From the sequence record OZ035738.1: a DNA stretch of 42,999 bases; one strand, given 5' to 3'. The notes under the pieces were generated by a model, which worked only from the letters and a program-made list of their open reading frames with translations, was not told the DNA's origin and did no database searches. Source of the stretch: Kagunavirus LM08P2. Position 1 is the first letter of the stretch. Each line of letters starts with the position of its first letter. Positions 4,351 through 39,131 of the stretch are shown here, in pieces. The translations under genes and the position numbers were made by a program.

Positions 4351-4378
4351 AAAGGCCCCATTACGGGGCCTTAGTTTT
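4351..4378. terminator. Bidirectional intrinsic terminator between convergent genes
   Basis: AAGGCCCC-ATTAC-GGGGCCTT hairpin flanked by A-run upstream and T-run downstream, between + gene ending 4348 and - gene ending 4377. Confidence 0.6.
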
Positions 4379-4622
4379 ATCGCACTCTCATAAATAGCTT
4401 ACCTTTGCGCTGTAACAAATCCATGCCAACTGCACCTTCACCAGATTTGTTCGGACGGCGCATTAAACTAAAGTTCCATACTCTAGCTTTTGAAGCATCT
4501 TTCGCATTGCACACCCAAAGTCTGCCGCTTTCTCTTAGGTCAAATAAGTCCGATATACTGAAATTATTAACCGGTATGAACCCGCTAATGAACTCACGTT
4601 CGCAACTAGGTAATTCCTGCAT
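4377..4622 (-). CDS. Hypothetical protein, opposite-strand insert in head module
   Basis: 81-aa ORF on minus strand with strong SD (GAGGAGGG) upstream of ATG at 4622 and its own promoter at 4649-4677. Confidence 0.5.
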   Translation of the reverse strand: MQELPSCEREFISGFIPVNNFSISDLFDLRESGRLWVCNAKDASKARVWNFSLMRRPNKSGEGAVGMDLLQRKGKLFMRVR

Positions 4623-4648
4623 ACACCCTCCTCGTTTCGATGTAATGA

Positions 4649-4677
4649 ATAGTACCCTATTATATTGGTGTGTGCAA
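4649..4677 (-). promoter_or_regulatory. Sigma70-like promoter, family 2 (TTGCAC-N17-TACTAT)
   Basis: Read on minus strand: TTGCACACACCAATATAATAGGGTACTAT; near-identical copies at 13790-13818(-), 36393-36421(+), 37829-37857(+). Confidence 0.5.
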
Positions 4678-4690
4678 ACTATTTATTTAC

Positions 4691-4743
4691 GTATTCCAGT
4701 TATTCCACTCAATTGTAAATGTTGGAATAAACTATTCGAATAG
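4691..4743. promoter_or_regulatory. Cluster of TGGAATA/TATTCCA repeats upstream of promoter at 4744
   Basis: TATTCCA at 4692-4698 and 4701-4707 with inverted partner TGGAATA at 4723-4729; similar TGGAATA pair at 5485-5512. Confidence 0.4.
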
Positions 4744-4772
4744 TTGACTTTTCACTAAAAATGTGCTAAGCT
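4744..4772 (+). promoter_or_regulatory. Promoter TTGACT-N17-TAAGCT (TG-extended), copy 1
   Basis: TTGACTTTTCACTAAAAATGTGCTAAGCT; nearly identical sequence at 36084-36112. Confidence 0.5.
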
Positions 4773-4779
4773 CCACCTG

Positions 4780-4978
4780 AGCTTGTGAAGTATGAACAAG
4801 CGACCGCGGCGCGGGCAGGTAACGGAGCGGGACGTAAGTCCTGAGTGTAGTTACGCTGACGCGTTCGGAAGGGCCATACTCTATTGCTTGTGTAAAAAGT
4901 AACTGGTTTACTGAGATTACGCCGTTTCTATGTTTAAATGATAAGGACTAGCGCCCCGCTTTATGGCGGGGCTTTACT
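4780..4978 (+). ncRNA. Candidate structured noncoding RNA / leader element, copy 1
   Basis: About 110 nt downstream of the promoter is conserved with the copy at 36119-36230; contains hairpins with compensatory differences between copies; no ORF conserved between copies; ends at a GC-rich hairpin plus T-run at 4951-4978. Confidence 0.45.
4951..4978 (+). terminator. Intrinsic terminator
   Basis: GCGCCCCGC-TTTATG-GCGGGGC followed by TTTACTT, immediately upstream of the spanin RBS. Confidence 0.55.
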
Positions 4979-4996
4979 TATCGAGAAAGGAGAAAC

Positions 4997-5383
4997 ATGA
5001 ATCTTAAAGCAACTGTCGTAGCAGGAGCATGTTTCATCATCCTGTTATACACGCACGGCTACTATCAATACCGCAGCGGCTGGAACGGAGGCAGGGCTAA
5101 TCTAGTTTCGCAGCAACAGCAGAAAGCACAGGCTGAGTTAGCGAAGAAAACACAACGGCAGCAGCAGGACGAATCAAAGGCCGCCGCCGCTGACAACGAA
5201 GGCAAGACGAAATCAGAGGTGATTACCCGTGAAGTCGTTAAGTACATTAAAACGCCTGGCCGCAGCGTGTGCACTTTCGACGATGCTCGCGTCCTGCTCA
5301 AGTCCCGCGCCGTCGCAAACGCCAATTCCATCCCCGGATACGACGATGATGCAGCCGCCATGCAAACTGGCCGCGCCAAGTAG
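4997..5383 (+). CDS. i-spanin (Rz-like inner membrane spanin)
   Basis: 128 aa; N-terminal hydrophobic TMD (ATVVAGACFIILLY) then Q/A/K/E-rich predicted coiled coil; overlapped by a lipoprotein ORF in another frame; strong SD AAAGGAGAAA. Confidence 0.55.
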   Translation: MNLKATVVAGACFIILLYTHGYYQYRSGWNGGRANLVSQQQQKAQAELAKKTQRQQQDESKAAAADNEGKTKSEVITREVVKYIKTPGRSVCTFDDARVLLKSRAVANANSIPGYDDDAAAMQTGRAK

Positions 5384-5492
5384 CGATGCCGATGAGGATT
5401 TAGCCATTGACGTTCAGAACACAGAATGTGTACGGCAACTGCGTCTGAAAGTGTTCATGTTGCAGGATTACGTGAGGAATATTCTGGAATAG
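5229..5492 (+). CDS. o-spanin (Rz1-like outer membrane lipoprotein)
   Basis: 87 aa from GTG start with SD GAGGTGA; signal peptide ending in lipobox LASC; proline-rich mature region; begins inside the i-spanin gene in the +1 frame and extends past its stop. Confidence 0.55.
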   Translation: MKSLSTLKRLAAACALSTMLASCSSPAPSQTPIPSPDTTMMQPPCKLAAPSSDADEDLAIDVQNTECVRQLRLKVFMLQDYVRNILE

Positions 5493-5526
5493 TTGCCTTG
5501 CATGTTGGAATAATTTATTCTTGACA
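5475..5526. promoter_or_regulatory. TGGAATA repeat cluster and promoter-like region upstream of scaffold/capsid genes
   Basis: GAATATTC palindrome 5477-5484, TGGAATA at 5485-5491 and 5506-5512, TTGACA at 5521-5526; shares TGTTGGAATAA...TATTC...TTGAC with 4720-4749. Confidence 0.35.
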
Positions 5527-5574
5527 TGTAAATCCGGGTGGCCCGGGTTCCAACGTCCAGGGGACATACTGACT

Positions 5575-6276
5575 ATGAATCGTTTTTTACGTTATCCGTT
5601 CCAGGAAGAAGCTGGGGCAGAAGATAAAGCTGGTGGCGGTGACGCGCCGAAAATGTTCACCGCTGAAGAAGTTCAGGCGCTGATTGAGAAAGAAGTTGCC
5701 GGGCTTAAGGCCAATCAGGAAGCATTGCTGGCGGAGAAGAAAGAAGCCGCTCGTAAAGCAAAAGAGGCCGAAGAAGAACGGCAGCGCGCGCACCAGGAGG
5801 CGTTAAAAGCCGCTGGTAAGATGGACGAGTTCGAAAAGACGATTCGTAGCCAGTATGACCCGGTGTTAGCCGAGAAAGATGGTCGCATCTCCAAAATGGC
5901 AGAGCGTATCCTCGGCAGTGAACGTAAAGCGGTGTTAGGCTCTTTCGCGGGCGACTTTATTACCCCGGAAGCAGTAGACATTCTTGCTCCGTTCGTTAAG
6001 ACTGAGTTCGAAGGCGATGACGTGGTTACTAAGTTTGTTGGTGCGGATGGCAACGTAATCACGACTGACCCGGAACAGTTCCGCAAATACCTGCGTGAAC
6101 ACAAAGCATTTTCGCATTTGATTAAAGCAAATGCAGCTTCCGGCGGCGGGGCTTCCGGTAGCAAAGGCGGCGGGGCCGCACCAGCGTTTAAAGACATGAG
6201 TGAAGCGGAGCGTTTAGCTCTGTATAAATCGAACCCTGCCGAATTTGAACGGCAACTTAAAGCCCTGAGGAAATAA
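5575..6276 (+). CDS. Scaffolding protein (putative)
   Basis: ORF track start 5521 is TTG; first ATG at 5575. Ala/Glu/Lys-rich, predicted coiled coil (EKKEAARKAKEAEEERQRAHQEALKAAGK), immediately upstream of major capsid gene. Confidence 0.5.
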   Translation: MNRFLRYPFQEEAGAEDKAGGGDAPKMFTAEEVQALIEKEVAGLKANQEALLAEKKEAARKAKEAEEERQRAHQEALKAAGKMDEFEKTIRSQYDPVLAEKDGRISKMAERILGSERKAVLGSFAGDFITPEAVDILAPFVKTEFEGDDVVTKFVGADGNVITTDPEQFRKYLREHKAFSHLIKANAASGGGASGSKGGGAAPAFKDMSEAERLALYKSNPAEFERQLKALRK

Positions 6277-6278
6277 TA

Positions 6279-7328
6279 ATGGCAATTACCACTATCGGCG
6301 ATATCGTAACTGGCAACATCCCGGTCCTGGCGTCTTATATGACCGAGGACCCGGTAGAAAAAACCGCGTTCTTTCAGTCAGGTATTTTGACCCCGACTCC
6401 GTACGCTGCCGAGATTGCTCGCGGCCCGTCCAACGTCGCTAACATTCCTTTCTGGAAAGCGATTGATACCTCTATCGAGCCTAACTACTCGAACGACGTA
6501 TACCAGGACATCGCCACCCCGCGTAACGTGCAGACCGGTGAGATGATGGCCCGCGTTGCATACCTGAACGAAGGTTTCGGTCAGGCGGACCTGACTGTCG
6601 AACTGACCAGCCAGAACCCGCTGCAATCTGTGGCTTCTCGCCTGGATAACTTCTGGCAGCGCCAGGCACAACGCCGTCTTATTGCTACCGCGCTCGGTCT
6701 GTACAATGACAACGTAGCCGCTACCGACGCATACCACGAGCAGAACGACATGGTAATCGACGTGTCTGCTACTCTGGGCTTCGATGCGGGCGCGTTCATC
6801 GACGCTACCCAGACTATGGGTGATGCGCTGATTGGCAACGGCGGTGAAGTGCTGGGTGCTATCGCGATGCACAGCTTCGTATATGCGCAGGCCCGTAAGC
6901 AGCAGCTTATTGACTTCATCAAAGACGCTGACAACGACACCATGTTTGCCACCTACCAGGGCTACCGCGTGATTGTTGACGACAGCATGACCGTAGTCGG
7001 TACCGGCCCTAGCCGTAAGTTCATCTCCATCATCTTCGGCAACGGCGCTATCGGTTACGGTGAAGGTAATCCGTCCAACCCGCTGGAATACGAACGTGAA
7101 GCGTCTCGCGGTAACGGCGGCGGCGTAGAAACCCTGTGGACCCGTAAGACCTGGTTGCTGCACCCACTGGGCTACAGCTTCACCAGCGCAGTAATCACCG
7201 GCAATGGCACCGAGACTACACCGCGCTCCGCTTCCTGGCAGGACCTGGCGAACGCCTCCAACTGGAACCGTGTTGTTGAACGTAAGCATGTACCGATTGC
7301 CTTCCTGGTAACTGGTGTCGGGGCTTAA
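6279..7328 (+). CDS. Major capsid protein
   Basis: 349-aa ORF after scaffold gene with SD GAGGAAA; followed by a strong intrinsic terminator, typical of a highly expressed capsid gene. Confidence 0.7.
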   Translation: MAITTIGDIVTGNIPVLASYMTEDPVEKTAFFQSGILTPTPYAAEIARGPSNVANIPFWKAIDTSIEPNYSNDVYQDIATPRNVQTGEMMARVAYLNEGFGQADLTVELTSQNPLQSVASRLDNFWQRQAQRRLIATALGLYNDNVAATDAYHEQNDMVIDVSATLGFDAGAFIDATQTMGDALIGNGGEVLGAIAMHSFVYAQARKQQLIDFIKDADNDTMFATYQGYRVIVDDSMTVVGTGPSRKFISIIFGNGAIGYGEGNPSNPLEYEREASRGNGGGVETLWTRKTWLLHPLGYSFTSAVITGNGTETTPRSASWQDLANASNWNRVVERKHVPIAFLVTGVGA

Positions 7329-7342
7329 GGTTAAGCTATAAT

Positions 7343-7372
7343 CGAGAGGGACTTCGGTCCCTCTTTTCATTT
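7343..7372 (+). terminator. Intrinsic terminator after major capsid gene
   Basis: GAGAGGGAC-TTCG-GTCCCTCTTTTCATTT. Confidence 0.7.
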
Positions 7373-7387
7373 ACTAAGAGGTAAATT

Positions 7388-7687
7388 ATGGCTAAGACCG
7401 GAAAAGGCTTGCCCCGCAGCCTTAAGAACGTTGACTTTGGCGACCTGGATATTCCCGTTACGCCTGCTACTACCAGCGTAGTTGGCGGGGTTAAAAAGTC
7501 GGCTACTGTAGCTGCTCCCGCGGCCATTACCGCTGCTGCCGGAGTTCAGGCCGCCGCAGACCCGACTAAGGCAGAGTTTGATGCGCTTGTAGCGGAGTAC
7601 AATAAACTCCGAACCGATGTTACCGCGCTGCGCGCTACCGTAGCGAACCTGTTAACCGCGCTTAAAAACGCAGGAACTGTAAGCTAA
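7388..7687 (+). CDS. Hypothetical Ala-rich structural protein
   Basis: 99-aa ORF with SD; position in head module. Confidence 0.4.
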   Translation: MAKTGKGLPRSLKNVDFGDLDIPVTPATTSVVGGVKKSATVAAPAAITAAAGVQAAADPTKAEFDALVAEYNKLRTDVTALRATVANLLTALKNAGTVS

Positions 7688-7699
7688 AGGAGCTTAAAA

Positions 7700-8053
7700 A
7701 TGGTTGATGTAATTAAACGTCGCATTACTGGTGTCTCCGACGACTCCCCGGCCGATGGTCAGGTAGAAATCGACATGGCAAATATCTCACCGGCATCTTT
7801 TTCTACCGCGCTTGCGGCTACCACCGCTGTTACCGCACCCGCGGCATTGACTCTTACCGTAGTTGTTACCGGCGGGCTGGCTCCTTATTCCTATCAGTGG
7901 TTCAAGGATAACAACGCCATCGCAGGCGCTACCGCGGCTACGTACACCAAAGCCACCACTGTCGCATCTACCGATTCTGGTACGTATAAAGTGGTTGTCC
8001 AGGATGTATATGGTAATATTATCTCCAGTAGCTCCGTAGTAACGGTATCTTAA
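7700..8053 (+). CDS. Ig-like domain protein
   Basis: 117 aa; YSYQWFKDNNAIAGA...GTYKVVVQD pattern similar to the Ig-like C-terminus of the 3887-4348 product. Confidence 0.45.
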   Translation: MVDVIKRRITGVSDDSPADGQVEIDMANISPASFSTALAATTAVTAPAALTLTVVVTGGLAPYSYQWFKDNNAIAGATAATYTKATTVASTDSGTYKVVVQDVYGNIISSSSVVTVS

Positions 8054-8089
8054 TACAACGGCCCTTCGGGGCCGTAATAAGGAAAGGTC

Positions 8090-8269
8090 ATGGCAGATAA
8101 TTATGTAATCCGCGAAAAGTACACCCACGTTGGTGTTGTTGACGGTCAGGTAATGCCTGTTCGCGGTGTTGTAGAACCGGATGAGCTTGTGGCAACGCAA
8201 CCAGATAACGAAGAAGCGCACAACAACGGCGGTGGTACTAAACGTCGTCGCCGTAAGTCAGAGGAATAA
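8090..8269 (+). CDS. Small hypothetical protein (59 aa) with basic C-terminus
   Basis: Hand-translated ORF below the 60-aa track cutoff; SD AAGGAAAGG upstream of ATG 8090; ends GGGTKRRRRKSEE. Confidence 0.35.
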   Translation: MADNYVIREKYTHVGVVDGQVMPVRGVVEPDELVATQPDNEEAHNNGGGTKRRRRKSEE

Positions 8270-8272
8270 TTT

Positions 8273-8785
8273 ATGCCTCTAATCGTGGAAACGGGTGAAA
8301 TCGTCCCTAATGCTGACAGTTACGTTAGTCTGGCTGACGCCCGCGCGTTAGCGGCTAATTATGGCCTGGAGTTGCCCGCGGATGATACCGCCGCAGAGGT
8401 GGCCTTGCGTAATGGTGCAACGTATGTTGGGTTAGCAGAACCCCAGATGTACGGTCGTCGTGTATCTGCCGAACAGTCACTGGCATATCCTCGCACTGGT
8501 GTAACGTTGAATGGTTTCCCAGTAGCTAACAATGTCATCCCGAAGCAGGTGATTCTTGCGCAGGTAATCGCCGCCGTTACCTATGGCGCGGGTACTGAGG
8601 TGCGGGCTAACTCTGACGGACGTTTGGTACAGACCGAGCGCGTAGAGGCCACAGTAACCGTCACCTACTTCAACAACGGCAACAGCGGTGCCACGACCGC
8701 GATTACCGCTGCGGATGACGCCTTACGCCCGTTACTGTGCGGCGGTCTTAACAATGGCTTCTCGTTTAATGTGCGCCGGGGGTAA
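8273..8785 (+). CDS. Hypothetical head/neck protein
   Basis: 170-aa ORF in head-to-tail joining region; function by position only. Confidence 0.4.
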   Translation: MPLIVETGEIVPNADSYVSLADARALAANYGLELPADDTAAEVALRNGATYVGLAEPQMYGRRVSAEQSLAYPRTGVTLNGFPVANNVIPKQVILAQVIAAVTYGAGTEVRANSDGRLVQTERVEATVTVTYFNNGNSGATTAITAADDALRPLLCGGLNNGFSFNVRRG

Positions 8786-8787
8786 AA

Positions 8788-9402
8788 ATGGCGAAGACTA
8801 AAACAGAGATGTTTACTCTTATCGGTGCAAATCTCCCCGATAATACCACTGGACTTATTACCCCCGCAGCGTTGCGCGAGGTAATGACACAGATGGCTGA
8901 CTCGCCTATCTATGCCACTCCGGGGGTTAAAGAGGTTGAAGTTCTCCGTGCCGCGTCGACAGTAGCACAAGCACCATCCGCAGTGGACACAGCATTGCAA
9001 ATAACTTTCGGTGCTGCCCAGGGAAGCGCGTCTAACCCGGTAATGATTAATGCTGCAGGGCTGGTTACATTCAACGCCGCGGGTAACTACGCCGTTCGCA
9101 TCAAGTTACAGGCGGGGCGTACGGGTGCTAGTGGGACATCAATCCTTTTATCACGCATTCTTCTTAACGGCGCTCAGTACGGCTCACCCGCGGCCACGAA
9201 ACTGGTAAGCGCGGATATTACAATCCCGATTGAATCCCGCGTCGTTATTAACCCCACCGCAGGCCAGACGTTTGCCGTTCAGATTATGCGGGATAGCGCC
9301 GGAAGCAACTACGGTGGCGTATACCCGCAAGCGGCTACTGTAACCGCATGGGGTACAGCACCATCCGCATTACTGGTTATCTCGAGACTGGAGGCAGCGT
9401 AA
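8788..9402 (+). CDS. Hypothetical structural protein
   Basis: 204-aa ORF tightly packed with neighbours. Confidence 0.4.
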   Translation: MAKTKTEMFTLIGANLPDNTTGLITPAALREVMTQMADSPIYATPGVKEVEVLRAASTVAQAPSAVDTALQITFGAAQGSASNPVMINAAGLVTFNAAGNYAVRIKLQAGRTGASGTSILLSRILLNGAQYGSPAATKLVSADITIPIESRVVINPTAGQTFAVQIMRDSAGSNYGGVYPQAATVTAWGTAPSALLVISRLEAA

Positions 9403-9761
9403 TGAGCACCGCTTTCAGTAAACGTATGCAAGGCGTTGGTACACGCCTTCTAACCAAATTCGGTAGCACGGTATCTCTGATTCGCGCCGGCTCGAAAGTG
9501 TGGGATGAAGTTCTCGGCGAGTACGTCTGGTCCGACGATGAAGTGTTGCCGTTGAAAGCTGTTCCGGTTCCGGTAAACGCGGGCCTGGTGAACGGTACGA
9601 CGATTCAGGCTGGCGACATGATTGTTAAAGCCGATTACAGCGTCGTTCCTAAGATGGAAGACAAGGTACAATTCGGCGGCGAGCAATGGTCGGTTGTGGC
9701 TATCGAGAAGAAGATGGTTAACGATGATGTCGTGGCATACTTTATTCAGGTGAGAAAATGA
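9402..9761 (+). CDS. Hypothetical neck protein
   Basis: ATG at 9402 overlaps upstream stop (TAATG); ORF track start 9348 is an upstream extension. Confidence 0.4.
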   Translation: MSTAFSKRMQGVGTRLLTKFGSTVSLIRAGSKVWDEVLGEYVWSDDEVLPLKAVPVPVNAGLVNGTTIQAGDMIVKADYSVVPKMEDKVQFGGEQWSVVAIEKKMVNDDVVAYFIQVRK

Positions 9762-10153
9762 GTTTCGCGCTTGATGTCTCTAAGTTCGTGGAAAAAGCGA
9801 AGAAGAACCCCGAGAAGGTGATGCGTCAGGTGTCTATCAAGCTGTTTTCCGCTATTATAAAGGCGACGCCAGTTGATACCGGTCGTGCGAGAAATAATTG
9901 GTTTGCGTCTGGCAGTACTCCGTCACAGGAAACTACCACCTACGGTGCACCGCAAGGAACGGCTACCATACAGCGTGTTACTGCGGTTATAAACACCGCT
10001 ACAGACTGGAGTGAGTTCACGCTGACAAATAACCTGCCGTATATACAGCGGCTGGAGTATGGCTGGTCACAACAGGCGCCAGCTGGGGTTGTCAGGACTA
10101 ATGTGTCTCGCTTCCAGCAACTCATTAACGAAGAAGCCAACAAGGTGAAATGA
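9758..10153 (+). CDS. HK97 gp10-like neck/tail completion protein
   Basis: 131 aa; ATPVDTGRARNNWF motif resembles the DTGxLRNS signature of the HK97 gp10 family. Confidence 0.5.
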   Translation: MSFALDVSKFVEKAKKNPEKVMRQVSIKLFSAIIKATPVDTGRARNNWFASGSTPSQETTTYGAPQGTATIQRVTAVINTATDWSEFTLTNNLPYIQRLEYGWSQQAPAGVVRTNVSRFQQLINEEANKVK

Positions 10154-10566
10154 TGGGCTACTTTGAGGACTTAACCAAAGCGTTCGATGTGCCGCTGGTA
10201 GCCTTCGGAACCGCCAACGGCATCAAGGTTGCGCTTGAAAACATCGACGCGCCGACATCAACCGATACGCCGTATCTGGCGAGTTACATGTTGCTGGCGG
10301 ATACGGAACAGGCTGATTTGTTCTTCACGGAACAACGCGCCGGTGTTTATCAGGTCGACATTAACTACGCATCGGTGAAAGGTAGCGCGCCAATCAATAA
10401 AATGGCAGACTTACTTAACACGGCGTTTAAAGCAGGTAAGTCATTTTCACGTAACGACATCTGCGCCGAGGTTCAATCGGTAAGCCTGGGGCCGCTGATT
10501 GTAGAAAACGGATGGGCCAAAAGACCATTGTCAATTAACTTTATTGCATTCACCAAGAGGCTGTGA
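10150..10566 (+). CDS. Hypothetical tail completion protein
   Basis: 138-aa ORF overlapping neighbours, between neck and major tail genes. Confidence 0.4.
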   Translation: MMGYFEDLTKAFDVPLVAFGTANGIKVALENIDAPTSTDTPYLASYMLLADTEQADLFFTEQRAGVYQVDINYASVKGSAPINKMADLLNTAFKAGKSFSRNDICAEVQSVSLGPLIVENGWAKRPLSINFIAFTKRL

Positions 10567-10568
10567 AT

Positions 10569-11735
10569 ATGGCTACAACTCCTTTTAAGGGCGCGAATAC
10601 CGCGCAATTCTATGTGGCGGAAGTCACCCCGGGCGTAACACCGACTAACCCGGTATGGTCGCCGTTGCGTAACACAGGTGGCGTTCCCGCTATCACCCGC
10701 GACACGCTGACATCCAACGAACTGGACGGCAGCCGTGAAACTACATCCATCCGCACCGGTAACAAACAGGTTAGCGGTGAATACGCGATCGAGCTTAGCT
10801 CTAAAAGCCAGGACGACTGGCTGGCGGGCGCTTTAGGTTCCACGTGGCAATCAGGTGTCTCTCTGTCAGGGCTGTCGATTACCGTCGCGCCTGCAGGTAA
10901 GACATTTACACGCTCCACCGGTAGCTTTATTTCTGACGGCGTTGAAGTAGGCGACCTGATTGCGTTTACCGACTTAACCGGCGACAACGCAAAACCATTT
11001 ATCGTCACTGCGGTAGAGGCACTGGTAGTGACCGGTGCAGGCATCCAGCACACTCTCACCACAGAGACCGCTACTACTGCTGCTAAGACAGGCGACAAAC
11101 TGGAAACCGGTAGCCAGTGTAAGACGTTCTCTATTCTCACCTGGTACAAAGGCCAGTGCGGCGGGACTGACGCATACACGTTAACCAAAGGCGTGGAAGT
11201 TTCTGGTTTTACCGTTGAGCAGGCCGTTAACGCGATGGTAACGGGCAGCTTCCCGTTCATCGGGCGCAGCCAGGAGATTCTCACTACGCCACCGTCTGGT
11301 TCTGACTTCTCCTCTGTTACGTTTGGTGACGAGCCGTTCTCCTCGGTCGACGTTTCCGTGTTCGATGGCTCTACGCCGTTGCGTTGCGACAGCCTGACCA
11401 TCACCAACGATAACAGCGCGTCCGCACAGTTCGAACTCGGCAACTCTAACGTTGCGTTTGTGGAGCGTAGCCGCGCGGCTAACACCTTCTCCATCTCAGG
11501 CAAGCTGTATGACATGGCTATGATTCAGAAGTTTATCAACGAGCAGCAGGTAGAGATTAACTCTATTCTGGCGGGGGTAAACGGAGCTATGTCTTTCAGC
11601 CTGAAACGCGCAGAGCTCACGGCGGTTACACCAGAAATATCCGGCCCGGAATCAATTACCCAAAGTATAGAAGGGCAGTCCACAGGCAACCAATACCAGT
11701 CGTCTATCGTAATTCAACGTATTAGTTACGCATAA
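10569..11735 (+). CDS. Major tail protein (putative)
   Basis: ORF track start 10563 is GTG; ATG at 10569 with SD AAGAGG; about 390 aa; followed by strong terminator; precedes chaperones and tape measure. Confidence 0.5.
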   Translation: MATTPFKGANTAQFYVAEVTPGVTPTNPVWSPLRNTGGVPAITRDTLTSNELDGSRETTSIRTGNKQVSGEYAIELSSKSQDDWLAGALGSTWQSGVSLSGLSITVAPAGKTFTRSTGSFISDGVEVGDLIAFTDLTGDNAKPFIVTAVEALVVTGAGIQHTLTTETATTAAKTGDKLETGSQCKTFSILTWYKGQCGGTDAYTLTKGVEVSGFTVEQAVNAMVTGSFPFIGRSQEILTTPPSGSDFSSVTFGDEPFSSVDVSVFDGSTPLRCDSLTITNDNSASAQFELGNSNVAFVERSRAANTFSISGKLYDMAMIQKFINEQQVEINSILAGVNGAMSFSLKRAELTAVTPEISGPESITQSIEGQSTGNQYQSSIVIQRISYA

Positions 11736-11737
11736 AA

Positions 11738-11768
11738 CTAAGGCCCCTTTCGGGGCCTTTTTCTTACT
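11738..11768. terminator. Bidirectional intrinsic terminator
   Basis: AAGGCCCC-TTTC-GGGGCCTTTTTCTT with A-rich 5' flank; sits between + major tail gene and - cassette. Confidence 0.7.
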
Positions 11769-13434: not shown

Positions 13435-13761
13435 CTATTTACTTTCCACGCCTATCGCCCACCCAGTCATTACCATTTGCAGACGGGTAGCTGTTAGTAG
13501 GCTGTAGAACGCGTCCCCGTTTTTCTCTACTGAACGTATCACCGTGTATGTTACGGCTTGCGGGGGTAGACCCGATTTACCAACCTCTACGGCGGCCTCA
13601 CACTCACGAACTGTAGAGTCCTTGAATGCCTTTACAATAGTAGGGTCAGCTTTCTTAAGCACGCCAGAAGTCATAAGAACAGATTCGCTAAATACCTGTT
13701 CGCACGGAGATCCAAAAGTAGCAAAAGACATAAACCCCAGAGCTAATACTAATTTACGCAT
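13435..13761 (-). CDS. Secreted/periplasmic small protein
   Basis: 108 aa; N-terminal signal-peptide-like MRKLVLALGFMSFATFGS; SD GAGGA; first gene downstream of promoter 13790-13818. Confidence 0.5.
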   Translation of the reverse strand: MRKLVLALGFMSFATFGSPCEQVFSESVLMTSGVLKKADPTIVKAFKDSTVRECEAAVEVGKSGLPPQAVTYTVIRSVEKNGDAFYSLLTATRLQMVMTGWAIGVESK

Positions 13762-13789
13762 AATTATTTCCTCAGTAAGTTACAAGTGA

Positions 13790-13818
13790 ATAGTACCCTA
13801 TTATATTGGGGTGTGCAA
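13790..13818 (-). promoter_or_regulatory. Sigma70-like promoter, family 2
   Basis: On minus strand TTGCACACCCCAATATAATAGGGTACTAT; drives the 13761-to-11764 cassette. Confidence 0.5.
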
Positions 13819-13925
13819 GTAGTGTGCTAGAATAAGTTTGCGCCTAGTGTCGCACACGAAAAGCGGGTGGTTCCCGTCTGGCGCGTCAACCTTAACCTGT
13901 AACCTCTTAACCAAAGGATTAAAGA

Positions 13926-14342
13926 ATGAAACTTTCTGATTTTTATTTTGCGGACCGCCACGCTGCTGGCACTAAAATGCCTATCCTTCTGCCGAGTGGT
14001 AAAGACTCCGGTGAATGGTTGCAGGTCATTGGCCCAGATTGTGATGCTGGTGTTCGTGCAGGCCGCGCCTACACAACGGCAATTCGACGCCTTACGGAAG
14101 AACTTGCACCATTAGATAAAGAGTGCGAGGCGCTGAATAACTGGGCGCGCTATAACGATGAGAAGGGCTGGCGGGTTATGGACCTGAACAAGCAGCTCGC
14201 CGTGGAAATCGTCACCGGTTGGTCATTCGACGAACCGTTCAGCAAAGAGGCGCTGGCTAACCTGTTTGACCAGTACAGTGGGCTGGCAGAGGCCGTAGTT
14301 AAGCACCATACGGATAGCCGTGAGAAACTCTCGGAAAAGTAA
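13926..14342 (+). CDS. Tail assembly chaperone (putative)
   Basis: 138-aa ORF immediately upstream of tape measure gene with SD AAGGA; followed by a -1-frame ORF. Confidence 0.5.
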   Translation: MKLSDFYFADRHAAGTKMPILLPSGKDSGEWLQVIGPDCDAGVRAGRAYTTAIRRLTEELAPLDKECEALNNWARYNDEKGWRVMDLNKQLAVEIVTGWSFDEPFSKEALANLFDQYSGLAEAVVKHHTDSREKLSEK

Positions 14343-27226: not shown

Positions 27227-29489
27227 AACGGTACACCTCTTCCCCAGCCCATGTTAACGGGAACCCTTCGGCCCACTCAGGTAATGAGCATAGCAGGTCA
27301 CCCATCTCTTTAACCGTGTACTCTGGCGTGTCTGGCGTTTCGGCAACACATTCGTCATGTACGTGGAGTACAATTGGGTAGCCCGCCGCCTCGACCGTCA
27401 GGAGTCCGTTAACCAGTAAATCACGGCACAACGCCTGGATGATGTTTTCACACAATTTTCCGCCGTGGGTGTACAAAGTTGTCCACTGGCGGGTGGTCTG
27501 ATTTTCACCCTGATACTTAATGCGGACGTTAGTAGTAACGCGCCCATCCTCGTCAGTCTCTTTAGTGACGCTTAAGCCTATGCCAGGGTAGGACATGATG
27601 CGCCCAGACGGCAGTTCCACGCACAACCACCAACCCGGAACCGGATTACCGTGGTTGTCTTTTTCTTTGGTACGCCAGATGCGGATGGCTCTGTCGCCGT
27701 TAAGGCGTACTCGGGCCCCCGCCCAAAACTCTCGTCCCGGATTTCTGATGGCGGCTATCACCGAATCCTTAAGGTCATTCCAGAATTTCACTGTTTCCGG
27801 ATGGGCTTCCCGCCACATGCGCTTAATGGCGTCACAGGTGCGCCAGACTTCTTTAGGCAGCACATAAGAGGCCCGTTCATCTTTTTTACCAGGCTTTGGC
27901 GGGCGTTTAGCCTCCTGAATTCTGGCCCATTCGTAGCCACGGGCGGTAGCCGCCCAAATGTGGTCGGGGAACGTGCCCCGCATTGTCTCTGTCATTTTAA
28001 AGAGGTCCAGCCCGTAAGTTTTAGCCATAGTCATAAAAGCCCCTACGCCCCCCTCGTAGCCGAGGCCGAGTTCGCAACATTTCCCGACCTGACGTAGGTC
28101 CTTACGGGTGGCTTTTAGTTCTACGGGGTCCATGCCAAACATCTTGCCCGCGGTGGCGCAATAAATATCAATCCCTGCGCGGAAGGTCTCAAGCGCGGAT
28201 GTCTCCCCCGCGGTCCAGGCCAACCCGCGCCCTTCTACGTTTGAGTAGTCGGCAACGAGCAACTTATTACCCTTTTCAGGGATGATGCAACTGCGAACAG
28301 TCGAGGCTGTCAGCTTGGATACGTCGAAACGACGGTGCGCCCGACCCTTTAGCAGCAGATTGATGCCGAACGATAGGGGGTTGAGACGACGGTTCCAGTC
28401 TTCGTCGGACTCCCACGGCTGGCGTACAAGTTTCTTCTCCTCGTTAGTCGGGTCATCATGATAGTACCCGCGCGACAGGTTCTGCGGCTGGAACCCTTTA
28501 CCCGCAAATCGTAAAGTGCGCTTTGCCCCACCGTACTGGATGCAACCGCGCCGGCGGCCGTCTTTGGACCGTCCTAGCAGGAGCGGTTTGTATTTTGTCG
28601 ACGCCGTGGAGGCCGCGCCGAGGCGCATCTCAATGATTGTGCGCGCATCGTCAGGTAAGTCGTCGTCCTCTAGCAAACCTTCGAGCGTTGCTTTCTGTGC
28701 ATTATAGATATTGTAGGCCGGTGCCAGCTCCCGAAGGATTGGCAGGAAGTCTTTACCCGTTAGCTTGCCGCCAAATTTAGCCCTGGCCTCGTTTTTTAGC
28801 TCTTGCTTGTGGCGTTCAACTGCTGCTACCGCCGCCTCAGCAAGAGCCGCATCAACAAAGAAGCCTCGGTCGTTGATTAACTGGTCAAGTTCAAGTACAC
28901 GGTCCTCGAAATCGGAGTTACCCCAACGTGGCAGCTTATGGAAGACTTCACGCATCGCTGTGATGTCGCTCACGGCATACTTGATGAACAGGGCCCACTC
29001 GTCAGGGTGAGTTTCTGCGGTGTAGCGGCGGATTTTGTAGTTCTTCGGCGTCGGTTTAGAGAAACGCTTAATCAGCGCCTTGCCGCGTTTATCTTTTGCA
29101 TTGTCGGCGGATACGCCCAGCACTTCGCACAATGCGTCAAGTGACCCCGGCAGCGCGTGACGAAACGCCCAAATCATCGTATCAATGGTGTTGCTTACGG
29201 GAATATCAAAACCCCAGCAGTTCTTCATGATGAGCCTATCGAAAAGTCCACCGTTATGCCACACCATCTTAATGCGACTGTTTGGCTTCACCAGACGGCG
29301 TAACGCGCGGTGTAAATCTCCCGGCATGTCGCTGCCGTCAGTGCAGTCCCATACCTGAACAGGCTCGTCATCAAAAGCATAGGTGCAGATGAGCACTTCG
29401 GTAGTCGGGTGTTCGGCGTAAGCATAGGAGCCGACTTTCTTTAAATCGGCTTCAGAGAATGTTTCAAAGTCTAAGAACAGGTAACTCAT
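27216..29489 (-). CDS. Family A DNA polymerase with 3'-5' exonuclease domain
   Basis: 757 aa; N-terminal DFETFS (Exo I motif); C-terminal HVHDECV resembling Pol A motif C. Confidence 0.85.
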   Translation of the reverse strand: MSYLFLDFETFSEADLKKVGSYAYAEHPTTEVLICTYAFDDEPVQVWDCTDGSDMPGDLHRALRRLVKPNSRIKMVWHNGGLFDRLIMKNCWGFDIPVSNTIDTMIWAFRHALPGSLDALCEVLGVSADNAKDKRGKALIKRFSKPTPKNYKIRRYTAETHPDEWALFIKYAVSDITAMREVFHKLPRWGNSDFEDRVLELDQLINDRGFFVDAALAEAAVAAVERHKQELKNEARAKFGGKLTGKDFLPILRELAPAYNIYNAQKATLEGLLEDDDLPDDARTIIEMRLGAASTASTKYKPLLLGRSKDGRRRGCIQYGGAKRTLRFAGKGFQPQNLSRGYYHDDPTNEEKKLVRQPWESDEDWNRRLNPLSFGINLLLKGRAHRRFDVSKLTASTVRSCIIPEKGNKLLVADYSNVEGRGLAWTAGETSALETFRAGIDIYCATAGKMFGMDPVELKATRKDLRQVGKCCELGLGYEGGVGAFMTMAKTYGLDLFKMTETMRGTFPDHIWAATARGYEWARIQEAKRPPKPGKKDERASYVLPKEVWRTCDAIKRMWREAHPETVKFWNDLKDSVIAAIRNPGREFWAGARVRLNGDRAIRIWRTKEKDNHGNPVPGWWLCVELPSGRIMSYPGIGLSVTKETDEDGRVTTNVRIKYQGENQTTRQWTTLYTHGGKLCENIIQALCRDLLVNGLLTVEAAGYPIVLHVHDECVAETPDTPEYTVKEMGDLLCSLPEWAEGFPLTWAGEEVYRYAK

Positions 29490-36083: not shown

Positions 36084-36112
36084 TTGACTTTTACTTAAAA
36101 ATATGCTAAGCT
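36084..36112 (+). promoter_or_regulatory. Promoter TTGACT-N17-TAAGCT (TG-extended), copy 2
   Basis: TTGACTTTTACTTAAAAATATGCTAAGCT, nearly identical to 4744-4772. Confidence 0.5.
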
Positions 36113-36118
36113 TCACTG

Positions 36119-36353
36119 AGCTTGTGAGATATCGCAAGCGACCGCGGAGCGGCAGGGAACGCAACGCGTGCCATTAGGCACTTGAGTGTAGTTCCGCTGG
36201 CGCTTTCGGAAGGGCCAAAGTCTATTGTTAATCCCGCCTAAATACCCAAGTCACTGATAATTAAAAGTTTCTATAGTTGCCGTAAGCAAGGTGGAGAGTA
36301 CTTCACTCCGCTGGGGTGGGCTAACGCCCACCCACTGCGTTGCGTACTCTTTT
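36119..36353 (+). ncRNA. Candidate structured noncoding RNA / leader element, copy 2
   Basis: Conserved with 4780-4886 over about 110 nt; no ORF; GC-rich hairpin GGGTGGGC-TAAC-GCCCACCC at 36313-36333 enclosed by GAGAGTAC/GTACTCT and followed by TTTT. Confidence 0.45.
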
Positions 36354-36392
36354 AAGAAACGAAAGAATCACAACGGCAACGTAACTTTTCTC

Positions 36393-36421
36393 TTGCACAC
36401 ACCAACATAATAGGATACTAT
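36393..36421 (+). promoter_or_regulatory. Sigma70-like promoter, family 2
   Basis: TTGCACACACCAACATAATAGGATACTAT upstream of 36456 gene. Confidence 0.5.
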
Positions 36422-36455
36422 TCACTTATAGAAACGAGACAGAGGAGTGAGGGTT

Positions 36456-36644
36456 ATGTTTAAACGTGGTCAGTTGGTTAAAGCTGTAAATAGCAATTAT
36501 TTCATTGTTGAAAGCGAGTCTGCAGTTTTTCCGGGGGCTTATAGGGTAAGTTTTCTCGGGGAAAGATTAGGAGCAATAACCTGGTTCCGTGGAGATGAGC
36601 TAACACTCATCGGCAACAATTTTAAATTCAAAGGGGCGAAGTGA
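36456..36644 (+). CDS. Hypothetical early protein
   Basis: ATG with SD GAGGAG (track start 36447 is GTG). Confidence 0.4.
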   Translation: MFKRGQLVKAVNSNYFIVESESAVFPGAYRVSFLGERLGAITWFRGDELTLIGNNFKFKGAK

Positions 36645-36898
36645 TGGAAGAATTAATTTGTATTGAATCCAGCCAGGATGTGCAGGATTGGTTTGTTAAA
36701 GGTAACAGATATTCGTCCGGAGTATATTCCGACGGCCGTCGATATGTTTTAGACGAAGACGGTGATGAATGGGATTTAAATGACGATGTAAGAGAAACTT
36801 TAACCGTTAGCAGGGTCAATGCTGTTTCTGCCTCATTCACAACGGCATCGAATCATGATGCTCGTGCCGACGACTCTGAGGGAGGTTGCCGTGAATAA
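36644..36898 (+). CDS. Acidic hypothetical protein
   Basis: 84 aa, Asp/Glu-rich; TGATG overlap coupling. Confidence 0.4.
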   Translation: MEELICIESSQDVQDWFVKGNRYSSGVYSDGRRYVLDEDGDEWDLNDDVRETLTVSRVNAVSASFTTASNHDARADDSEGGCRE

Positions 36899-36946
36899 TT
36901 ACCCGTTTATTTTAATAGTCAGCGCCGTTTATGTGGTGCATGCGTT

Positions 36947-37180
36947 ATGGGGGCTGGTATGAGAAAACACATAATAAAGGTAGACCATCTGGACGGAGTT
37001 AAATTGCCGACGAATAAAGTAGAAACGTGGTGTGGGGCCACTCCATCGTACGGTGAATGGCTGTTCCAGGATGCTCAACACGCCTTAATTGCTGTAGAAA
37101 ACGGATTCAGGCAAGAGCCTTGCGCACAGTGTTTATCCGCTATCGCCCAGATCGCAACTCAGGCGTTAAGTGAGGACTAA
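36947..37180 (+). CDS. Hypothetical protein
   Basis: 77-aa ORF; alternative start ATG 36959. Confidence 0.35.
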   Translation: MGAGMRKHIIKVDHLDGVKLPTNKVETWCGATPSYGEWLFQDAQHALIAVENGFRQEPCAQCLSAIAQIATQALSED

Positions 37181-37650: not shown

Positions 37651-37821
37651 ATGAAACTGAATGACATCGTAACCTGGACTGGTAGAAACGGAGAAAAGCG
37701 ATTCGGGCTTATTGTTGCGTCAGACGGCAACAAGTACCGTGTTATGCGATGGCGTCAGTGGGCACGACGCCCGAGGTACTACTGGATTCGTGGCGAACGA
37801 TTATCTTTAAAACACCAATAA
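37651..37821 (+). CDS. Small hypothetical protein (56 aa)
   Basis: Hand-translated ORF with SD GCAGGAG. Confidence 0.35.
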   Translation: MKLNDIVTWTGRNGEKRFGLIVASDGNKYRVMRWRQWARRPRYYWIRGERLSLKHQ

Positions 37822-38638: not shown

Positions 38639-38838
38639 CCAGCATCCTCTTTATCTGGGTATTGTCCGCAGGCCAGATGCACCTGGCGGCCTCAGAAACG
38701 TTTTACTCGATGGAGGCGTGCCAGTCAGCGGCACGCGCCGCAGAGAACGCGCACTTCCTGTTTCAGGGCGACAAGCCAAACGATTCGGAGGTACGTGCTA
38801 TCTGCTCACCTAAGCGACTTGGTAAACAGGAGAAATAA
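38635..38838 (+). CDS. Small protein with signal-peptide-like N-terminus
   Basis: 67 aa; MTSILFIWVLSAGQMHLAAS hydrophobic N-terminus. Confidence 0.4.
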   Translation: MTSILFIWVLSAGQMHLAASETFYSMEACQSAARAAENAHFLFQGDKPNDSEVRAICSPKRLGKQEK

Positions 38839-39131
38839 TGTCTCTGGCAACTGACATCCTGAAACGAAGCGGCCTTGCGCCGCTGTCGCCGAGAGCGAAC
38901 ACCCGGATGCACAAGCGCCGAGGTAACGCGCTGTACCCCGAGATTCAGGCCAGACGCAAAGCTGTCCGCGCCTGCGGATTCCAGAACGGGAAGGCCGTGA
39001 ATCTCGGTGAGTTTAAAACACAGGAACGCGCAGCTATCGCTAATCGGCTATTTAATTACTGGAAATCGCTGGGGTACGATGATATTCCGACGAAACCGCA
39101 GAGACGGCAATACATCTGGAGACACAAATAA
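38838..39131 (+). CDS. Hypothetical basic protein
   Basis: 97-aa ORF with SD CAGGAGA. Confidence 0.4.
   Translation: MSLATDILKRSGLAPLSPRANTRMHKRRGNALYPEIQARRKAVRACGFQNGKAVNLGEFKTQERAAIANRLFNYWKSLGYDDIPTKPQRRQYIWRHK

Follow-up and report, generated by a model that had tools for sequence, protein, structure and literature searches.

The 42,999-nucleotide (nt) sequence of Kagunavirus LM08P2 (OZ035738.1), referred to here as the window, was found to carry an RNA element of approximately 105-110 nt that is placed directly behind its own promoter at the head of the spanin-capsid operon, with a second, diverged copy ahead of the early genes. In its predicted fold, hairpin P1 lies at the 5' end and is followed by a long irregular hairpin, P2-P3, and then by a tail that stays single-stranded. 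Its secondary structure is real, and the element is most suitably classed as a new family of phage leader RNA. By analogy with the put RNAs of phage HK022, it is tentatively proposed to be a cis-acting antitermination or anti-pausing leader. The source phage is a virulent siphovirus in the genus Kagunavirus (subfamily Guernseyvirinae), and the window holds its complete or nearly complete genome.

A promoter and its transcribed block in two copies

The promoter and approximately 110 nt downstream of it are present exactly twice in the window, at 4744-4888 (copy 1) and 36084-36229 (copy 2). This confirmed at both places the coordinates and layout of a near-identical promoter and transcribed block that had been reported in a preliminary description of this DNA. 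Global alignment of the two segments gave 121 identical columns out of 150 (80.7%) and a score of 84, compared to -18 +/- 5.9 for shuffled sequence, with the homology beginning at the -35 hexamer and stopping just past ..UCUAUUG. The 100-nt flanks of both copies were 49% identical, which is the random level, and had thus rightly been called unrelated, except that both copies are followed by the short block GTTTCTAT. When the whole window was searched with a covariance model of sequences from relatives, only two matches were returned (136 bits, E 1.7e-36, and 106 bits, E 5.5e-28), with everything else scoring 10 bits or less, and no third copy was found in the window by either sequence or model search. 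The leader of the tail operon (13838-13930) was considered as a third copy on account of a vague UAGUGU likeness and was rejected, its fold not being significant (z = -0.09).

Each copy is headed by what reads as an extended -10 sigma-70 promoter (Table 1). The TTGACT-N17-TG-n-TAAGCT arrangement noted earlier was read at 4744-4772, with the same layout at 36084-36112, and extended -10 promoters of this kind were found at only these two places in the window. The layout is kept in all variants, either as TGnTAAGCT or, among relatives of the SETP3 type, as TGnTACGCT (SETP3-type promoter hexamers, TAGACT and TACGCT). Transcription of copy 1 would be expected to start at approximately 4779-4780, where a second -10-like hexamer is situated. 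SETP3-type loci have an exact second copy of their -10 hexamer, TACGCT, 3 nt further on (locus L070, 3045-3050), and the two hexamers change together between types (TAAGCT/TGAGCT here, TACGCT/TACGCT in SETP3). The repeated hexamer might be a sigma-dependent pause signal or a mere consequence of the P1 sequence.

Secondary structure of the element

In both sequence types P1 begins 1-2 nt past the expected start of transcription, and in the SETP3 type its position is occupied by ACGCU-UUC-AGCGU. In the following hairpin, P2 is formed by 4804-4823 paired with 4850-4868, with a basal helix (CCG-C-GGCGC / GCGUU-CGG) that includes two adjacent G-U pairs (4808/4865 and 4809/4864). An asymmetric internal loop, GGAG (4824-4827) opposite AGUGUA (4844-4849), separates P2 from P3, the latter consisting of 4828-4833 paired with 4838-4843 and closed by a GUAA loop. 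The tip of this hairpin is hypervariable, the P3 loop being GUAA, AUUA, GUCA, GUUA, CUCG or CACA depending on the type. The tail, by comparison, is conserved (GGAAGGGCC..UAUUG), with GGaAGG and UAuUg invariant or nearly so across all types. Copy 2 adopts the same architecture in its minimum-energy fold (z = -4.3), with P3 formed as GUGCC-AUUA-GGCAC at 36168-36181. Both hairpins that had been pointed out previously are therefore borne out, GCTTG...CAAGC being P1 and GGAC-GTAA-GTCC (GTGCC-ATTA-GGCAC in copy 2) being P3, while the main helix, P2, which encloses P3, had been overlooked.

Comparative support for this structure was obtained from four viral-contig scans, one metagenome scan and several GenBank records, yielding 72 instances that represent 41 distinct sequences and at least eight sequence types. 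In the model-guided alignment, 96.0% of pair cells were standard pairs compared to 84.2% after shuffling, a figure biased towards the structure, the alignment having been fitted to the covariance model. Double-sided changes were identified in 11 of the 28 pairs. The covariation score was 0.304, as opposed to 0.102 +/- 0.007 for shuffled alignments and at most 0.042 when partners were slid by 1-3 columns, and covarying pairs comprised all four P3 pairs in the model together with six of the eight mid-P2 pairs. Furthermore, every variant of types A to F folded alone gave the same architecture as its minimum-energy structure; the SETP3-type inputs to this test ended inside P1. The two adjacent G-U positions were found as such in 35 of 38 sequences, and as the opposite strand would have A-C mismatches there, selection acts on the transcript of the + strand. 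The compensatory hairpin changes of the preliminary description are confirmed. Nucleotides that never vary between types are those at the P1 base (GCU/AGC), at the AGCG-ACCG junction, in parts of the internal loop, and in the tail motifs GG-AGG and UA-U.

A fourth helix (P4) in the tail was weakly supported (86.5% paired compared to 83.3% shuffled, and broken in the SETP3 type) and is not claimed. Kink-turn (K-turn), sarcin-ricin/loop E, 11-nt tetraloop receptor, ops, boxA and boxC motifs were looked for by eye and rejected.

The overlapping open reading frame

An open reading frame (ORF) runs through copy 1 at 4792-4902. It had been described as having 38 codons and as being absent from copy 2; the frame is present but has 36 codons, and it is not a conserved protein frame. 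That it encodes a 36-residue protein is extremely improbable. The frame is open in most type A copies, and in public records the element is either unannotated or lies under a small hypothetical ORF, such as Bas76_0007. However, single-base insertions or deletions shorten it to 9 or 17 codons in four variants (L002, L013, L032 and L042), and its ATG is absent from L033 (type A), L060, all copy 2 sequences of type B and all SETP3-type sequences. In addition, the ATG is situated in the P1 loop, approximately 13 nt from the expected start site, without a Shine-Dalgarno sequence. With the frame shifted, truncated or lacking its ATG in so many variants, the earlier view of the element as RNA rather than protein holds, and the reading frame that many GenBank records place over it is probably not genuine. 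In Bas76 (L086), small hypothetical ORFs are annotated both over the element (5282-5392) and over the non-coding early leader (36274-36375 and 36525-36641).

Distribution among relatives

BLAST with the copy 1 region identified 180 phage records at 93-100% identity, belonging to Kagunavirus and some Jerseyvirus isolates with E. coli, Salmonella, Raoultella and Shigella as hosts. These 180 records carry copy 1 as type A, while approximately 270 further records (SETP3, SETP7, SS3e and wksl3 among them) carry it as the SETP3 type. In these two sequence types copy 1 heads the spanin-capsid operon in approximately 450 records, essentially every Guernseyvirinae record; by way of comparison, a capsid protein of 80% identity or more was found in 461 records. 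The SETP3 type is much more divergent, with a different P1, a shorter P2 and another P3, but retains the architecture and the signature nucleotides.

Copy 2 was found in only about 42 records. In each it lies at the same position in front of the early genes and has diverged from the copy 1 with which it shares a genome. Element cores have been exchanged between the loci: one and the same core occupies the copy 1 site of L040 and the copy 2 site of L050, and the two sites are therefore functionally interchangeable. Promoter and RNA, judging by these sequences, travel together as a cassette.

In the metagenome scan, 10 of the 120 returned stretches were true model matches, all of known types and without a new context. 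Pseudomonas phage PMBT14 gave no model match and has no recognisable element. A host origin was considered and rejected, with BLAST finding no similar sequence in 5,426 E. coli genomes, a search that short seed matches would escape. At the gathering score, Rfam 15 gave no match in the whole window, and no description of the element was found in the literature on Guernseyvirinae, Kagunavirus, Jerseyvirus and antiterminator RNAs.

The leader downstream of copy 1

Between the element and the spanin gene lie an A/U-rich linker and a terminator-like hairpin region (Table 1), the latter ending 16 nt before the spanin start codon, with the ribosome binding site (RBS) of the spanin gene 10 nt after the hairpin tail. 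Relatives show compensatory changes in this hairpin (CCCTGC/GCAGGG, CCCGGC/GCCGGG and CCCGAC/GTCGGG). In type A it has the GC-rich stem and U-tract of an intrinsic terminator, with tail UUUACUUAU, while the SETP3 type keeps the hairpin with tail UUAGCGUAU. The earlier statement that each copy ends at a GC hairpin and T-run fits copy 1; copy 2 is followed by a 54-nt composite hairpin and then UUUU. An intrinsic terminator is also present after the capsid gene in both sequence types.

Nucleotide diversity, computed over 37 distinct type A loci, was between 0.035 and 0.054 for each of the promoter (0.054), element, linker and hairpin, the linker (0.040) being as low as the element. This compares to 0.062 and 0.172 for second and third codon positions of the spanin gene, respectively, and 0.29 for upstream intergenic DNA. 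The whole leader is constrained, and not its folded part alone. A related GCCGUA box, similar to that of the linker, was also found in leaders without the element.

No other promoter-like site was found on the + strand between 4773 and 7995. The element RNA is therefore the 5' end of the spanin/scaffold/capsid mRNA and, with the upstream transcription unit closed at 4352-4372, transcripts of these genes must cross the leader hairpin. Two other ideas on this hairpin were discarded. Its stem CCCCGC/GCGGGG equals the stem of a type I-E clustered regularly interspaced short palindromic repeat (CRISPR), yet it changes freely with compensation in relatives, and an antiterminator pairing of the tail with the hairpin amounts to only 4 bp, which is unconvincing.

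Proposed function and comparison with known systems

In the proposed mechanism, which is preferred to the alternatives below though less likely than not, host sigma-70 RNA polymerase would transcribe the element from its extended -10 promoter, folding would start at the extreme 5' end, and the folded nascent RNA would act on the very polymerase transcribing it, in the manner of HK022 put. The elongation complex would be bound through the conserved internal loop, the basal helix with its tandem G-U pairs and the tail motif GGAAGG, and would become resistant to pausing and termination. Polymerases modified in this way would pass the leader hairpin (4953-4972) and the terminator behind the capsid gene (7344-7365) and so transcribe the whole 7-kb head/connector operon, with the second, diverged copy of the cassette sitting ahead of the early operon in this phage. 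We infer the start site, the binding of polymerase and antitermination. That the element forms a second class of protein-independent antiterminator RNA, unrelated to put and carried as a portable cassette throughout a subfamily of virulent siphoviruses using unmodified host polymerase, is by the same analogy conceivable but doubtful.

The weightiest points for a put-like role are the extreme 5' position of the element, its co-transfer with the promoter, its independence of downstream sequence, its placement upstream of terminator-like signals in long operons and the presence of two diverged copies. As the homology stops at ..UAUUG and cores have been exchanged between loci, function appears to be independent of what lies downstream, which fits a processive signal and argues against an expression platform of the riboswitch type. 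The two diverged copies with compensatory changes also mirror putL and putR, and no known antiterminator protein was annotated in Bas76 or detected among the ten small or basic ORFs scanned.

HK022 put RNA binds the beta' zinc-binding domain of its own polymerase and suppresses pausing and termination for kilobases (PMC9378689). Like the element described here, put is a promoter-proximal nascent RNA of two stem-loops starting within 2-3 nt of the start site, has two copies in each genome, diverged to about 70-80% identity with compensatory changes, and lies upstream of terminators in long operons, with a dedicated antiterminator gene known for neither (PMC9378689). In the window, two stem-loops past a promoter in two diverged copies were found at 4773-4888 and 36112-36229 (81% identical), a likeness of architecture only. 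Unlike put, which is approximately 73 nt long, the element has a structure of approximately 90 nt with a conserved tail, and its second hairpin is much longer. Each copy furthermore has its own copy of one promoter, whereas putR is 270 nt from PR. The phages also differ, those described here being virulent Guernseyvirinae and the put phages lambdoid and temperate, and function is here assigned by analogy. A GC-rich run (GCGGCG..GGG..CAGG) is common to the 5' strands of both RNAs, but in different structural positions, and homology on this ground was rejected.

The lambda PR'-qut-6S RNA-tR' region, to which the element had also been likened, similarly has a constitutive-looking sigma-70 promoter with a -10-like hexamer just downstream of the -10, a short untranslated transcript running to a hairpin, and lysis and head genes beyond. 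However, Q systems do not require a conserved RNA fold such as is present here, and the type A hexamer TGAGCT lacks the critical A at position 2. The 85 genes annotated in the close relative Bas76 include no Q-like product. A Q system of the PR'-tR' kind was not supported, with no Q-like or N-like gene annotated in Bas76 or detected among the ten small or basic ORFs scanned.

Several observations weigh against a put-like role. A search of the entire HK022 genome with the covariance model, filters being switched off, gave no match at putL (approximately 28,230-28,330, - strand; located from primers in PMC9378689). The element is not a member of the put family, and the suggested resemblance to put does not extend to homology. 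The model search that had been advised as a check recovered the two window copies and the matches in relatives, but not putL. Searching 4650-5050 against Rfam at E values up to 10 gave chance-level hits of 17.5 bits or less, none of them over the element. As the leader hairpin of the SETP3 type lacks a U-tract, it is not a universal terminator that needs to be overridden, and terminators after the capsid gene are common in siphoviruses that have no antitermination system. The equal conservation of the whole 240-nt leader, unstructured linker included, is not explained by a pure put-like module. Copy 2 is absent from most relatives, Bas76 among them, and in Bas76 an unrelated leader takes its place. 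At copy 2 of the window, a separate promoter could express the early genes without read-through from it. The outlying Guernseyvirinae member Pantoea phage AH01 gave no model match and has no recognisable element ahead of its spanin gene. The antitermination role itself rests on analogy.

The sole marginal match in HK022 (L085; 15 bits, E 0.055) was obtained at 36886-36958, in the PR' region just past gene Q. It covers P1 and the tail only and is probably due to chance. AH01 carries UAGCGUUAA, which resembles the SETP3-type loop strand; homology between them is not claimed.

Alternative explanations

The conserved unpaired nucleotides in the asymmetric loop and tail, next to a variable tip, are typical of protein-binding sites, and the element may instead be a factor-dependent leader of the nut or attenuator kind, at which an early phage protein or a host protein binds the internal loop and tail and times the head operon; this we regard as unlikely. 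It is just as unlikely, in particular, that such a bound protein sets the passage of polymerase through the leader hairpin or the use of the spanin RBS. A factor would agree with capsid transcripts peaking mid-infection in Kagunavirus RNA sequencing (RNA-seq) although the promoter looks constitutive (PMC12645636), with the data of that study being at gene level only, and the layout at copy 2 (promoter, element, hairpin and UUUU, second promoter, early genes) would suit a delayed-early switch. Lambda nut sites likewise combine a hairpin with an adjoining conserved single strand in two operon leaders, but the boxB loop is conserved whereas the apical loop here is variable, and no boxA (GCUCUUUA-like, with up to one mismatch) was found in 4773-4996 or 36112-36446. 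No N-like protein was annotated in Bas76, and ten small or basic ORFs that were scanned matched only PHROGs of unknown function or helix-turn-helix regulators; nor was any N-, Q- or other antiterminator-like family detected among them. The EAR and conAn RNAs, of Bacillus and of conjugative plasmids of Gram-positive bacteria, are also structured leaders heading long operons with internal terminators, but they are unrelated in sequence and belong to Gram-positive hosts, and no described Rfam family was matched here. ConAn is reported to require a partner protein (PMC8191782). Small basic early ORFs do exist in the window, such as 37651-37821 with 6 Arg in 14 residues, but as candidates they are pure speculation. 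The start of P1 at 1-2 nt past the expected start in both sequence types would alternatively fit an element of mRNA processing or stability, in which P1 guards against 5'-end-dependent decay and P2-P3 is an RNase III-like processing site through which the mRNA of the operon would be matured or stabilised. The combined helix of approximately 23 bp with its 4 x 6 internal loop resembles RNase III substrates, the T7 sites R0.3-R1.3 serving as comparison for helix length and internal loop, variation is tolerated at the hairpin tip, and a second conserved hairpin is placed just upstream of the RBS, as expected for 5' protection after cleavage. Like the element, the T7 sites are irregular hairpins with an asymmetric internal loop that are repeated in the genome in similar copies, but they are intergenic rather than 5'-terminal and are without a conserved tail or attached promoter, and cleavage here would be by analogy. 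Such a role has no need of an invariant tail, an invariant AGCG-ACCG junction or tandem G-U pairs, and leaves the constant linkage of the RNA to its own promoter unexplained. It is considered unlikely as well.

A trans-acting small RNA of approximately 200-235 nt, ending at the downstream hairpin and pairing with or titrating a host target, appears improbable. It would have a structured 5' domain, an A/U-rich unpaired linker and a GC hairpin, and would account for the strong constraint on the whole unit, linker included; the genes past copy 2 moreover have their own promoter. Against this, the SETP3-type hairpin lacks a U-tract, the copy 1 RNA must be a leader in an operon with no other promoter, and the linker differs between copies and sequence types, leaving no common seed. 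Nor was there BLAST similarity in E. coli genomes, though short seeds would be missed. The comparison with lambda 6S, the PR'-tR' transcript, or StxS, under which read-through into the operon is a by-product, is no more probable; PMC7547250 provides a precedent for a regulatory small RNA arising from early termination at a phage late promoter. Selection at the DNA level, as a recombination cassette, an operator or protein-binding DNA with incidental hairpins, could explain why cores have been swapped between loci and phages, and promoter-associated recombination hot spots to which this swapping may be likened are known in T4-type phages. Pairing has, however, been kept by compensatory changes in 11 pairs, and the G-U pairs would be A-C on the other strand, a pattern that indicates selection on a single-stranded transcript of the + strand and makes a DNA-level feature very improbable.

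Guernseyvirinae (Jersey-, SETP3- and K1-type) are among the commonest phage isolates of Salmonella and E. coli and are used in therapy and biocontrol, and an RNA that is supported by covariation and heads their capsid operon offers a handle on how they programme host RNA polymerase. Were the element a factor-independent antiterminator, put-type control would be no lambdoid curiosity, and the promoter with its 110 nt would be a compact, portable part for terminator-proof expression in enterobacteria. If it is bound by a protein or processed instead, it marks a regulatory node of the late operon.

Genome context and other features

Gene order was taken from the ORFs of the window, with gene names transferred from annotated relatives. 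Genes for terminase, portal, head morphogenesis and decoration extend up to 4348, where a bidirectional terminator (4352-4372) closes the unit, and a small gene on the - strand (4377-4622) lies between this terminator and copy 1. The operon led by copy 1 follows (Table 1). Beyond its final terminator are tail genes and then replication genes on the - strand, and a long block on the + strand, comprising small early genes, holins and endolysin, begins at 36447 and continues into the terminase genes. The order of promoter, RNA, hairpin and lysis or late genes given in the preliminary description accordingly applies to copy 1, with spanin and head genes, while copy 2 precedes early genes. The terminators at 4352-4372 and 11740-11759 are nearly identical and bidirectional (AAGGCCCC-loop-GGGGCCTT, with T-runs on both strands), closing convergent units, and the same motif is found in SETP3 upstream of its own element.

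Table 1. Positions of the element, its leader and associated features in the window
Feature	Position	Strand	Description
Copy 1 promoter	4744..4772	+	-35 TTGACT 4744-4749, 17-nt spacer, TG 4764-4765, -10 TAAGCT 4767-4772; read from sequence
Second -10-like hexamer TGAGCT	4778..4783	+	5 nt after the -10; overlaps expected start and 5' strand of P1
P1	4781..4801	+	GCUUGU-(9 nt)-ACAAGC; minimum-energy fold in variants folded whole
P2-P3	4804..4868	+	65-nt irregular hairpin, two nt after P1
Single-stranded tail AAGGGCCAUACUCUAUUG	4869..4886	+	Conserved; copy-to-copy homology ends here
A/U-rich linker	4887..4950	+	64 nt, predicted unpaired by consensus fold; box GAUUACGCCGU at 4915-4925
Leader hairpin	4953..4981	+	GCCCCGCU-UUAU-GGCGGGGC (4953-4972, 8 bp, -17.9 kcal/mol) and tail UUUACUUAU
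Operon led by copy 1	4997..11735	+	Spanin, scaffold, major capsid, connector and tail-tube genes; ORFs, names from relatives
Terminator internal to copy 1 operon	7344-7365	+	After capsid gene
Terminator ending copy 1 operon	11740-11759	+	Bidirectional; terminator prediction
Copy 2 promoter	36084..36112	+	TTGACT, 17 nt, TGc, TAAGCT
Copy 2 RNA	36118..36229	+	106-bit model match; P1 36120-36127 with 36132-36139, P2 36142-36209, tail 36210-36227
Composite hairpin	36296..36353	+	54-nt hairpin 36296-36349, then UUUU; -29.8 kcal/mol, z = -5.3
Separate early promoter TTGCAC-N17-TACTAT	36393..36421	+	Between copy 2 and first early gene (ATG 36456)

Copy 2 is succeeded by a C-rich stretch and then by the composite hairpin, which is conserved in relatives of types B and C, while types D and F have a different hairpin. 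The leaders of types D and F past copy 2 (L014, L016, L021, L025, L049 and L068) contain a CTCA microsatellite, (CTCA)3 to (CTCA)6, situated between the element and the hairpin GGUGCC-UUCG-GGCACC. A perfect 8-bp long-range inverted repeat, GUUGCCGU (36276-36283) and ACGGCAAC (36372-36379), flanks the downstream hairpin of copy 2. A related box, GAUU..(U/C)GCCGUA, was identified in every leader examined, that of copy 1 (4915-4925) and those of Bas76 and Pantoea phage AH01, which are without the element, included. For the repeat and box, an RNA helix is one possibility and a DNA operator adjoining the early promoter another.

This early promoter belongs to a family of promoter and 5' untranslated region that is unrelated to that of the element, TTGCACAC(A/C)CCAAYATAATAGGRTACTATTCA..GAAACGAG, with three sites in the window, at 36393-36450 (+), 4625-4680 (-) and 13780-13820 (-). 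Promoters of the TTGCACAC type head the early genes, the small - strand gene at 4377-4622 and the - strand block starting at 13761, and the family is probably the standard early promoter of the phage. Two very basic early ORFs, 37651-37821 (56 aa, net charge +10, motif RVMRWRQWARRPR) and 38838-39131 (97 aa, +15), would be the only obvious candidates for an RNA-binding factor, which is speculative; Arg-rich early proteins were set aside as N-like candidates, with nothing tying them to the element.

The early leader of Bas76 (L086, 36290-36560) and the spanin leader of AH01 (L207, 2000-2330), in which the element is absent, have another promoter motif, TTGACACATNTTTGTATAATG, in common, and in both the motif precedes other GC-rich hairpins and one resembling a terminator. 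From this it appears that cassettes of promoter and leader may have been swapped between the spanin and early loci across the subfamily.

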